Source: Shigella phage pSs-1
Direction: 5' to 3' (one strand)
Sequence record: KM501444
DNA: 64,000 bases
Position numbers and translations under genes: made by a program. Below are positions 24,232 through 59,145 of this stretch, one piece after another. Below the pieces are notes generated by a model. That model made no database searches. It was not told where the DNA came from and was given only the letters and a program-made list of their open reading frames with translations. Positions within the stretch are counted from its first letter, which is position 1. Every line of letters starts with the position of its first letter.

Positions 24232-24260
24232 AACAATCTCCTCATTTAACCAACAAGACT

Positions 24261-24290
24261 ACTATACCATAGTCTTGTCAGCTTGTAAAC
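24261..24290 (-). promoter_or_regulatory. T4-type early promoter
   Basis: actataccat...gtaaac. Confidence 0.55.
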
Positions 24291-25717
24291 TAAAATTTTA
24301 ATTCATTTGCCAAAGCATCTAACTGAGCTCGAGCGGATTCGTTTCTTTGATAGCGATTCTGTTCAGCTTGAATCTGCTGTGAACCTGCTACTTCGTTCAC
24401 TTCGGTTGGAGTAGAATCTTGTTCAATTTCTACCCATTTCTGATTTCCTTTTTGAACACCCATTAAAAACTTATTCCATTTATTCTTATCACCGTATCGT
24501 GATTTGATTTGCTTAATGAGTTGTTGTTCAGCAGCTGCTAACTCCTCGGTTTCAATGACCGCAAGCATAAAATCGGCTGTTGCTGGAAGACCGGCAGATT
24601 CTGCAATATCGCTCATGTTAACATCAGAAGAATCCCAAGCTTGCTTACCAACCTGTGCTGCAGTCCAAAGAACAGTTTCGGTTTCAACAGCCAGAGCACG
24701 CAATTCCTCTGCGATAGCTTTAACAGTCGTGTAACTATTTTCTGAATAAACTCTAATGCGGCAAGATTTACAAATACCCAGATAGTCAACAATAATGATT
24801 GTTGGAACAAAATTCTTCTTGAGCTTCAATTCGTTTAAAAGAGATCGAAATGTATTAGCGTCTGCTCCACCAGTAGGATACTGTTTAACGATTAAACGGC
24901 CGAGAGTAGATTTCTCACGCCATTTTTCCATTTTTCCTTTATATTCAGCGTAAGAAATATGCCCGTCATCAATGTCATCAAGAGAAACATCAAGCATATT
25001 AGCGTCAATACGCTTAGCACAAACTTCTTCTGCCATTTCCATGGAAATGTAAAGAACATTGTGTCCGAGCTGCAAATAATCTGCTGCCAATGAACACAAT
25101 CCTAATGACTTACCAACGTTAACACCAGCCATTAAAACGTTCAGCGTTCCAGTTTCAGCTCCGCCTTTAGTAATTTTATTTAGAATTTTGAGTTTAAATG
25201 GAACCTTACGAGCTTTATTCATATAAGATAGCCAACGTGCTTCGTAGTCATCCATCCAATCATGACCAACGTAACTATCAAATGAAATTGATAATGCTTG
25301 GCGCATGATGTCAGGAATAGCACCAACATCCGGCATTTTCTTATTTCGTTTTTCCGGAGGAAGCTCAGCATTAGTTTGAATTTCAATTATTTTAGATGTA
25401 GCATTAAACATCGCCCTTTGCTGAACATATTTTTCTGTTTCTTTTACTAACCAGCTGTGGTCTTCTGGAGAATCGGCTAGTTTCGAAATAAGTGTTTTTA
25501 CACCAGAATATTCTGTTTCAGTAAATGAACTATTTTCTAATGCAACATTTAACGCATTAATAGATGGAACGCTATGGTACTCATTAACATGAGATTTAAT
25601 TAATTTGAATGTATTTTTAGCTGGACCACTTTCAAAATATTCTGAATCCATATATGGCCAAACTTTTGAAAAATAAGCTTGATCAAATATGAGATGAGAA
25701 AGAATAATTTCTACCAC
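24290..25717 (-). CDS. 41: replicative DNA helicase gp41
   Basis: 475 aa; MVEIILSHLIFDQAYFSKVWPYMD; GTG start with AAGGAGTA SD. Confidence 0.92.
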   Translation of the reverse strand: MVEIILSHLIFDQAYFSKVWPYMDSEYFESGPAKNTFKLIKSHVNEYHSVPSINALNVALENSSFTETEYSGVKTLISKLADSPEDHSWLVKETEKYVQQRAMFNATSKIIEIQTNAELPPEKRNKKMPDVGAIPDIMRQALSISFDSYVGHDWMDDYEARWLSYMNKARKVPFKLKILNKITKGGAETGTLNVLMAGVNVGKSLGLCSLAADYLQLGHNVLYISMEMAEEVCAKRIDANMLDVSLDDIDDGHISYAEYKGKMEKWREKSTLGRLIVKQYPTGGADANTFRSLLNELKLKKNFVPTIIIVDYLGICKSCRIRVYSENSYTTVKAIAEELRALAVETETVLWTAAQVGKQAWDSSDVNMSDIAESAGLPATADFMLAVIETEELAAAEQQLIKQIKSRYGDKNKWNKFLMGVQKGNQKWVEIEQDSTPTEVNEVAGSQQIQAEQNRYQRNESARAQLDALANELKF

Positions 25718-25726
25718 ACTTACTCC

Positions 25727-26089
25727 TTAAAAGAATTTAAATTTTTTCTTTGACCTTTTATTAAACGCATCTTGTAGTTGCATTGTAATACATTTTTCTA
25801 CATGAGGAGCTAACTCAGCTTTTCTTTCTTGGTCAAGAACAGCAAAGTCCATTACGACTTTTCCATCAACCCAATCTAATTTTGTCACATACACAATGTG
25901 TGTAGAACCGTCTTCTAGTTTAATGACAATCTCCTGGATAACATTTTCCATGGCAGATTTAATTATCTTAAGAGATTCATTAAAAAGACGTTCTTTTCTT
26001 TCTTCTTCCCCCTCCGAAGAGGGGGATTCATCGATAATTTCTAGATCTAAATCTAAATCATCTTTATTCATTAAATTCTTCCATATCAC
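25727..26089 (-). CDS. 40: gp40-like protein (120 aa)
   Basis: synteny between 41 and uvsX; acidic N-terminus. Confidence 0.55.
   Translation of the reverse strand: MIWKNLMNKDDLDLDLEIIDESPSSEGEEERKERLFNESLKIIKSAMENVIQEIVIKLEDGSTHIVYVTKLDWVDGKVVMDFAVLDQERKAELAPHVEKCITMQLQDAFNKRSKKKFKFF
26008..26025 (-). other. stable UUCG-tetraloop hairpin inside gene 40 coding sequence
   Basis: ccccctc-cgaa-gaggggg (7-bp G/C stem). Confidence 0.5.
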
Positions 26090-27245
26090 TTAACTGATCT
26101 AGGTCAGTTTCTAAATCAGCTGCTGATTTACTTTTACTTTCTGGAGATTTAAATTTTTCAACCTTCGAGTTAATCAATTCATCAACTTCAGCTTCAACAA
26201 TTTCATTACTATCAATAGCACCTAACTGATAAGCGCGTTTAATAGCATCTCGGAATGGTTGATGCTTAAATAAAGGACCCCAGAATGTAGTGCAGTTGGT
26301 ATCTTTTGCACGCCAAGATTTTTCTTCGCGAATCATCTCGCCGGTTTCTTCGTCAAGAAATTCACGAGCATACCAGCCATTTTTAGGTTTTACCACAAAT
26401 CCTAATTCAAGAGCCATATCTAACAATCCAGAATAAGGATCGATACCACCGTCAAATTTAACATCAATAAAGAATTTACTTTTTTCTTTAACAGTACGAG
26501 ATTTTTCTACATTTAGAACAAATTGATACCCCTGAAGATCAGAACCATCTTTAATCTGGCGCTTACCGATAATGAATACAGTATCAGCCGAATACATTAC
26601 GCCTGTACCACCTGTCATCACGGTTTTACTAAACATTTCAATTGTTTCAATTGTATGGTTAACCGCAACACATGGAATGTTTTTAATACTAAAATAAGGA
26701 GTAACAATACGGAATAATGACTTCAGTGATTTAGCACGAGTCATATCTGCCACAGATTTTTCATTCAAGGCATCTTCCGTTTCTTTCTTAGAAGCCATAT
26801 TACCGATTGAGTCGATGAATACAATAACTTTTTCACCACGCTCAATAGCTTCAAGCTGATTCACCATATCAATTTTCAGCTGTTCAACTGACTGAATTGG
26901 TGTATGAATTACTCGTTCCGGGTCAACTCCCATGGATCGCAAATAAGCTGGAGTAATACCAAATTCGCTATCATAGAATAGACAAACCGCGTCAGGATAT
27001 TTGTTCAAATACGCCGCAACCATAGTCAAAGACATATTTGATTTAAAGTGTTTAGAAGGACCTGCAAAAATGGTTAAACCCGACTGCATACCGCCATCAA
27101 TCGCACCAGAAATAGCAATATTAAGCATTGGGATTTTTGTACGGATTACATCCTTTTCATTAAAGAATTTAGATGTAGTCAGTTCAGCAGTCATTTTAGA
27201 AGTGGAAGCTTTAATCAAACGGGATTTTAAATCTGCAATAGACAT
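26064..27245 (-). CDS. uvsX: UvsX recombinase (RecA-like)
   Basis: 393 aa; near-identical to recalled T4 UvsX (391 aa) with small differences. Confidence 0.92.
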   Translation of the reverse strand: MSIADLKSRLIKASTSKMTAELTTSKFFNEKDVIRTKIPMLNIAISGAIDGGMQSGLTIFAGPSKHFKSNMSLTMVAAYLNKYPDAVCLFYDSEFGITPAYLRSMGVDPERVIHTPIQSVEQLKIDMVNQLEAIERGEKVIVFIDSIGNMASKKETEDALNEKSVADMTRAKSLKSLFRIVTPYFSIKNIPCVAVNHTIETIEMFSKTVMTGGTGVMYSADTVFIIGKRQIKDGSDLQGYQFVLNVEKSRTVKEKSKFFIDVKFDGGIDPYSGLLDMALELGFVVKPKNGWYAREFLDEETGEMIREEKSWRAKDTNCTTFWGPLFKHQPFRDAIKRAYQLGAIDSNEIVEAEVDELINSKVEKFKSPESKSKSAADLETDLDQLSDMEEFNE

Positions 27246-58934: not shown

Positions 58935-59114
58935 TTAAAGTTTCAATTAATTCTCTTAACTTAAAAGCTTGTTCACTTGTCATTACATACTCCTTTGAAT
59001 AATATCAATAATATTGTTCACCAGATTATAAGTAAACATTGGGTAATTATATTGAATCATCACATACACAACAAACAAAACTTTCATTCTCTTCTCCTTG
59101 GCAGTTGACAAGAT

Positions 59115-59145
59115 TACTATATCATAACCTTGCCAACTTGTAAAC
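59115..59145 (-). promoter_or_regulatory. T4-type early promoter
   Basis: tactatatcat...gtaaac; embedded in inverted repeat cttggca/tgccaa. Confidence 0.5.

Follow-up and report, generated by a model that had tools for sequence, protein, structure and literature searches.

Stabiliser hairpins between cistrons block 3′ exonucleases and thereby give unequal expression of the genes of one operon, as in the malE-malF REP element and the Rhodobacter puf operon. In T4 mRNA, extra-stable hairpins with C(UUCG)G tetraloops were reportedly described by Tuerk et al. in 1988. The C(UUCG)G hairpins of T4 mRNA have also been summarised in a review (PMC4371310). The closest described system is a stem-loop in the uvsX-40-41 region of T4. 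For an RNA 3′ end in vivo immediately past a stem-loop upstream of gene 41, Kim et al. 2025 (PMC12152347) cite the two Hinton papers of 1989 (J Biol Chem 264:14432 and 14440). Kim et al. describe a reporter leader made of the 358 nt that precede gene 41, and report that more RNA ends at the stem-loop in a rho mutant, that the level of gene 41 mRNA depends on RNA reaching beyond the hairpin, and that GoF(D25Y) restores the normal amount of RNA running into gene 41, acting post-transcriptionally by raising RNA stability. A T4 uvsX record of the 1980s (GenBank X03099) marks two inverted repeats at the site and already labels it 'stem-loop structure pot. transcription terminator'. The T4 reviews Hinton 2010 and Uzan and Miller 2010 do not mention the hairpin.

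The window analysed here is a stretch of 64,000 nucleotides from Shigella phage pSs-1 (KM501444). The phage is T4-like (Tequatrovirus) and has uvsX, gene 40 and gene 41 in T4 order on the minus strand; its gene 40 region is 100% identical to that of Shigella phage sb3 and ~96% identical to that of T4. The features that concern us are the following.

26064..27245, minus strand: uvsX, RecA-like recombinase, 393 aa, stop codon at 26064-26066
26064..26071, minus strand: AUGAAUAA, overlap of the uvsX stop with the start codon of gene 40
25727..26071, minus strand: gene 40, head vertex assembly chaperone, 114 aa, placed by use of the T4 start ATG
26007..26026, minus strand: hairpin UCCCCCUC-UUCG-GAGGGGGA, 8-bp stem with C(UUCG)G tetraloop, −15.9 kcal/mol
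26019..26026, minus strand: 5′ arm UCCCCCUC, comprising Ser16 (UCC), Pro17 (CCC) and codon positions 1-2 of Ser18 (UCU)
26015..26018, minus strand: tetraloop UUCG, comprising the last base of Ser18 (UCU) and Ser19 (UCG)
26007..26014, minus strand: 3′ arm GAGGGGGA, comprising Glu20 (GAG), Gly21 (GGG) and codon positions 1-2 of Glu22 (GAA)
25990..26006, minus strand: purine-rich tail AGAAGAAAGAAAAGAAC, without U-tract, directly 3′ of the hairpin
24290..25717, minus strand: gene 41, replicative helicase, downstream of gene 40

T4 (HM137666) has the same 20-nt hairpin, identical, and there it is the sole perfect stem-loop of −4 kcal/mol or lower in the 358-nt stretch that precedes gene 41. Because no other strong hairpin lies in this stretch, we infer that the stem-loop of Kim et al. 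(Fig. 5B) is this hairpin and that the RNA 3′ end lies accordingly. The hairpin itself is already known in T4. The 3′ arm in X03099 (L001, 695-713) reads GGGG, and later T4 genomes (L002, T4T) read GGGGG; loss of one G would shift the gene 40 reading frame, and its absence from the record probably goes back to gel compression that the hairpin itself brought about.

The initial annotation of the window described CCCCCUC-UUCG-GAGGGGG at 26008-26025 of the mRNA as a 7-bp all-G/C stem. The sequence was verified on the minus strand and the seven pairs stand, but one of them is U:A. With an outer U:A pair from the flanking bases, the stem has 8 bp, six G:C and two U:A. The loop is closed by C 26019 and G 26014 (minus strand), and RNAfold, applied to the 116 nt around the site, includes the 8-bp helix in its minimum-free-energy structure. 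Rfam covariance models gave no match at E <= 1 within 25500-26500. The hairpin begins 37 nt past the uvsX stop codon and 45 nt into the gene 40 ORF, and it does lie inside the gene 40 coding region as first annotated, in codons 16-22 (S-P-S-S-E-G-E). As gene 40 starts atop the uvsX stop, the hairpin has to be written in gene 40 codons. The Pfam Phage_head_chap domain covers aa 44-99 of gp40, so that the hairpin-encoded segment is outside the conserved domain, in an acidic N-terminal extension that looks dispensable.

Strong hairpins are frequent on this strand. Simple hairpins of −10.8 kcal/mol or lower number 28 on the minus strand of the window against 3.5 expected, and those of −15.9 kcal/mol or lower number 5 against 0.17 expected, the expectations coming from first-order Markov simulations of a 64-kb strand. 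About a dozen strong hairpins on the minus strand are of the C(UUCG)G type. With mechanical ORFs as gene proxies, the other tetraloop hairpins are intergenic, as the initial annotation had stated: five lie 1-4 nt past a stop codon and the rest tens of nt from ORFs. Several of them share the core AAGGGGC-UUCG-GCCCCUU, and a U-tract comes next in some cases only. Two 15-bp hairpins of ~−17.9 kcal/mol on the minus strand resemble each other in sequence. The first, AGCUGACAAGACUAU-GGUAUA-GUAGUCUUGUUGGUU at 24248-24283, is directly past gene 41, where it shares bases with a sigma-70-like promoter match (24289..24261); the second, AGUUGGCAAGGUUAU-GAUAUA-GUAAUCUUGUCAACU, is at 59103-59138.

The codons used for the hairpin are the rarest for their amino acids: CCC accounts for 1.8% of Pro, GGG for 5.7% of Gly and GAG for 15% of Glu, and the Ser codons TCC (5.4% of Ser) and TCG (5.1%) are rare as well. 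In 20,000 codon-usage-weighted synonymous recodings of DESPSSEGEEE, native stability was never reached. However, ~10% of the recodings still formed a hairpin of −10 kcal/mol or lower, because Ser and Pro codons are complementary to Gly and Glu codons. This self-complementarity of S-P-S-x-E-G-E in codon space speaks for a reading in which the hairpin has no RNA function and is a by-product of selection on the SPSSEGE peptide. A DNA element, such as a cruciform or recombination site, would belong to the same class of explanation, and antisense indeed folds about as well as sense in most lineages. With 10% of recodings able to self-pair, the codon test alone is suggestive but short of decisive, even though the native codons are the rarest and outdo every recoding.

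Comparison of related genomes bears on the same explanation. The initial annotation had set conservation of the hairpin against synonymous drift, and we found the synonymous sites of the stem either frozen or changed in pairs, which favours function. The third positions of UCC and CCC pair with third positions of GGG and GAG; two of the eight stem pairs are third-codon positions on both sides, and exactly those two vary. They go from C:G to U:A on both sides, and none of the changes breaks the seven core pairs; this formal pair count covers seven same-register variants only, because MAFFT aligned arm-swapped and register-shifted variants by sequence and not by structure, and the others were compared by position and energy with our own scripts. 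In Tequatrovirus, 422 GenBank records are identical across the 50 nt around the hairpin, and three of four sampled one-mismatch records differ outside the stem. The fourth, Tequatrovirus EC101, has UCC changed to UCU, giving a U:G wobble, the expected intermediate. Among the Melville-like phages, Citrobacter phage Merlin and Enterobacter phage CC31, hairpin codons for the same residue as in the window are identical to the window's in 16 of 16 cases, versus 39-50% elsewhere in gene 40. G:U pairs give the sense strand an advantage of 4-11 kcal/mol in stability over its antisense in four lineages (EC101, Marfa, RZ-like and L074), and this advantage points to mRNA over DNA or antisense RNA; the lineages compared throughout are not phylogenetically independent.

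Gene 40 and uvsX loci were gathered from IMG/VR and GenBank phages. A strong hairpin lies at the same place in nearly every lineage in which the two genes adjoin, in the following versions (5′ arm/loop, and 3′ arm where given).

T4-like phages: UCCCCCUC/UUCG
RB69-like phages: UCCCCUUC/UUCG, or UUUG through a Ser-to-Leu change in the loop
Melville-like phages, Citrobacter phage Merlin and Enterobacter phage CC31: CCCCCUC/UCAG or UUCG
Roth66-like phages: UCUCCCUC/GGAA
Marfa: AAGCUCCCCUU/GAAG/AAGGGGAGUUU, pairing register shifted by one base
RZ-like phages: UGCGGAGGGAGC/UAAG/GCUCCUUCUGUA, arms swapped with the purine arm first, peptide EGAKAPS
Bp7-like phages: GAGGGUC/CUAGU/GACCCUC, arms swapped, peptide EEGPSDP
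L077: GAGGGCC/CUAGU/GGCCCUC
L053: AGAGGGUCA/CUA/UGACCCUCU, kept despite non-synonymous Pro-to-His and Ser-to-Tyr changes
L074: CUGGCUGGG/GAGA/CUCAGCCAG, peptide LAGETQP

The peptides at the hairpin site thus differ (EGAKAPS, EEGPSDP, EEGHYDP and LAGETQP), all with a hairpin. A peptide that is not conserved while the hairpin persists, compensatory synonymous changes, the sense-strand advantage of G:U pairs in four lineages and a position outside the Pfam domain all stand against the absence of an RNA function, and we regard that explanation as largely refuted by the comparative data and scarcely credible. In this comparison, it is the RNA structure and not the peptide that is kept by selection, and the structure appears to dictate the gp40 peptide.

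Other lineages have loops other than UUCG, so the tetraloop is not the conserved feature. This bears on the suggestion in the initial annotation that the hairpin could be a protein-binding operator; a phage translational repressor or an RNA chaperone such as GoF would be a candidate ligand. In favour of binding by GoF, Kim et al. 2025 (PMC12152347) report that GoF(D25Y) alters the stability of RNA with the 358-nt leader more than that of RNA with other leaders; they also report that wild-type GoF has little effect. Moreover, the UUCG tetraloop is bound by no proteins according to the review PMC4371310. The loops range over UUCG, UUUG, UCAG, GGAA, GAAG, UAAG, CUAGU, CUA and GAGA, with sizes of 3-5 nt, and the order of the arms varies as well; pairing alone is kept. 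We therefore do not uphold the operator, which we consider very improbable. Cleavage by RegB at GGAG was also considered as the conserved feature and rejected, since RB69-like phages have GGAA.

Two further observations were made on these sequences. CC31, L044 and RZ-like phages have a second strong hairpin (e.g. UUGAAAAGGGUCCUGCGAAGACCCUUUUCAA) close to the 5′ end of gene 41 (L036, 1906-1930; L044, 1908-1934; L046, 1912-1942), without counterpart in the window. For GAATCCCCCTCTTCGGAGGGGG, matches of 19-22 nt with 95-100% identity were found in unannotated DNA of the unrelated Mycobacterium phages Myxus, Anselm and Darrell (GenBank hits H152-H154); Myxus has an exact 22-nt match, and 38 Mycobacterium phage records matched in all. 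These matches appear to be the same hairpin design of independent origin.

Data from lineages with a spacer between uvsX and gene 40 showed that the hairpin is then located in the spacer, 0-22 nt past the uvsX stop, with −8 to −15.5 kcal/mol. Such spacer hairpins were found in RB43, FL20 (Krischvirus), Aeromonas phages ZPAH1 and Asswx_1 and Pseudomonas phage PspYZU05, and also in loci L070, L072, L073, L078-L081 and L092. Three of them read as follows.

RB43 spacer: AGGGGGC/AUAA/GCCCCCU
FL20 (Krischvirus) spacer: AAAGGGGC/UACGU/GCCCCUUU, then U's
PspYZU05 spacer: GAAAGGAGGC/UUCG/GCCUCCUUUUUU, a textbook terminator

The embedded hairpin was absent from every spacer-hairpin lineage examined. The N-terminus of gp40 is mostly short in these lineages, and long in PspYZU05 and L070. 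L070 combines a new intergenic hairpin with a long gp40 N-terminus, in which DETPAKENN looks like a decayed relic. In PspYZU05 (L045, 331-1419), the uvsX homologue is spread over three consecutive ORFs (331-612, 596-781 and 778-1419), which could reflect frameshifts, sequencing errors or an insertion.

In six environmental loci (L093, L098, L129, L131, L132 and L140) there is no gene 40, and a gene 41-like helicase ORF directly follows uvsX with an ATGA overlap. Here the hairpin GGAAGG/UYAUMC/CCUUCC is embedded in the helicase gene at +46 to +48, in codons for G-R-K-V-I-P-F, and shows a compensatory G:C to C:G change at synonymous sites. Over all loci, a hairpin of −10.8 kcal/mol or lower was present within 120 nt past the uvsX stop in 43% of 79, versus 1.2% of 648 control windows of equal size inside uvsX. 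Among loci with a UvsX of 52% identity or more to that of the window, all 18 have a hairpin of −8.3 kcal/mol or better, and 17 of the 18 reach −10.8 kcal/mol or lower; about half of the distant environmental uvsX loci are without a strong hairpin. A stable stem-loop closely 3′ of the uvsX cistron has the same placement in more than 20 lineages. Because the hairpin moves between spacer and ORF, the conserved unit is a strong hairpin just past uvsX, and not a gene 40 hairpin. Two loci were set aside: Acinetobacter phage AbTZA1, an apparent exception in which the gene upstream turned out not to encode UvsX (18% identity, no Pfam match), and ZZ1, because uvsX is not adjacent. In several environmental T4-like contigs (L105, L113, L114, L118, L120 and others), a 16-17-bp hairpin UUUCACACAGAUACAG-AAGAA-UUGUAUCUGUGUGAGA of up to −23.7 kcal/mol lies +54 to +90 past the uvsX stop, in Cys-rich coding sequence.

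This turnover of position also bears on translation. The initial annotation offered a ribosome pause site, and a hairpin that must be unwound by the ribosome 45 nt into the gene 40 ORF might slow ribosomes early in the gene; alternatively, the purine arm, which includes GGAGG, might act as a Shine-Dalgarno-like pause. Such a device would tune gp40 synthesis or folding. However, in spacer lineages the hairpin is upstream of the gene 40 ribosome-binding site and absent from the ORF, in some environmental phages it is in a different gene, that of the helicase, and RB69-like phages are without GGAG (GGAAGGGG). A pause as the selected function leaves the move to the intergenic spacer unexplained, and we consider a translational role improbable. 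No slippery heptamer is present 5-9 nt upstream, where GAA AUU AUC GAU GAA has no X XXY YYZ motif; a programmed frameshift signal was ruled out for this reason. An internal translation start after GGAGG was also rejected, as no start codon lies at the right spacing from it.

The main rival to a barrier against exonucleases is partial true termination. The hairpin would then be a genuine partial terminator or attenuator, perhaps helped by NusA or influenced by Rho, and fewer polymerases would reach genes 40 and 41. Intergenic counterparts that look like canonical terminators make this idea plausible: those of PspYZU05, FL20, L073 and L080 have a U-tract. X03099 labels the T4 site a potential terminator, and the increase of RNA ending at the T4 stem-loop in the rho mutant (PMC12152347) is in accordance with termination. 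On the other side, the 3′ tail is purine-rich or mixed, without U-tract, in the window and in all embedded versions, and the intergenic counterparts in RB43, L072 and L081 are likewise without U-tract. A consensus terminator scan did not call the hairpin site, because of the missing U-tract. Moreover, the effect of GoF(D25Y) on this region is shown to be post-transcriptional, through RNA stability, in PMC12152347. We consider partial termination an unlikely, though plausible, account of the hairpin.

According to the explanation that we favour, the hairpin is a sense-mRNA stem-loop that delimits the uvsX message on its 3′ side and serves as an exonuclease barrier within the uvsX-40-41 unit, and we regard this as probable. 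It is favoured because embedded versions have no U-tract and because rescue by GoF(D25Y) is post-transcriptional. From the three functions proposed in the initial annotation, only the decay or processing barrier is retained; the 3′ end in vivo at the identical T4 hairpin, as cited in PMC12152347, and the constant placement after the uvsX stop speak for it. For the mechanism of the barrier and its purpose of differential expression, we infer the following course. Transcripts cut or terminated further downstream would be trimmed 3′ to 5′ by host PNPase, RNase II and RNase R; these exonucleases would be halted by the very stable hairpin, and a stable uvsX-only mRNA would build up. Genes 40 and 41 would be expressed solely from RNA that is intact beyond the hairpin. 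The recombinase would thereby be decoupled from the chaperone and the helicase, which are needed less abundantly. Transcripts ending at the hairpin would hold a gene 40 fragment without stop codon, and the cost of this is unexplained by the barrier model.

A wider reading of the comparative pattern is offered tentatively: a regulatory module after uvsX may be old and mobile in T4-like phages and may have been overprinted repeatedly and independently by whichever ORF follows, namely by the N-terminal extension of gene 40 with several sequence solutions and by the helicase gene in environmental phages, the RNA structure setting a short stretch of protein each time. In this overprinted form, the ratio of uvsX-only to full-length mRNA could track gene 40 translation activity, since translation of the embedded version melts the stem, and ribosome rescue would have to deal with stop-less gene 40 fragments from transcripts that stop at the hairpin. 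We found no statement of this pattern (compensation, multiple peptides and turnover of placement) in the accessible T4 literature. Hence the comparative picture, with its compensatory synonymous changes, several peptides, embedded/intergenic turnover and embedding in the helicase gene, may be new.

The hairpin helps to explain how one transcription unit can supply much UvsX and little gp41 and gp40. It is also linked to the long-standing question of why T4 fails on rho(nusD) hosts and how goF mutations rescue it, since the critical RNA 3′ end is placed at this stem-loop in the literature. More generally, a signal for RNA stability or termination can be carried inside a coding region and shape the N-terminus of a protein. 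Synonymous recoding of gene 40 would probably change the expression of uvsX and gene 41, and we suggest caution in phage genome annotation and recoding.

Among known systems, the T4 uvsX-40 stem-loop matches the window hairpin in sequence, in its 37-nt distance, in gene 40 placement and in uvsX-40-41 order, and there is no difference of substance. With the other C(UUCG)G hairpins of T4 it shares the UUCG loop, the C:G closing pair and a short G/C-rich stem; those hairpins are otherwise intercistronic, whereas this one is written in gene 40 codons. Rho-independent terminators also have a G/C-rich stem-loop near the end of a gene (here 8 bp with 6 G:C, −15.9 kcal/mol), but they need a U-rich tract 3′ of the stem. 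The tail in the window is AGAAGAAAGA, and without a U-tract the hairpin is not a canonical terminator. The REP and puf stabiliser hairpins resemble the hairpin of T4 and the window in being a stable stem-loop 3′ of a highly expressed upstream cistron. For T4, PMC12152347 extends the likeness to an RNA 3′ end reported at the stem base and to lower stability of the segment downstream, which depends on further factors. Stabiliser hairpins sit in a spacer, whereas the window hairpin, for which blocking of exonucleases is proposed, sits in the coding sequence of the next gene. Because it is embedded there, translation of gene 40 must melt its stem.
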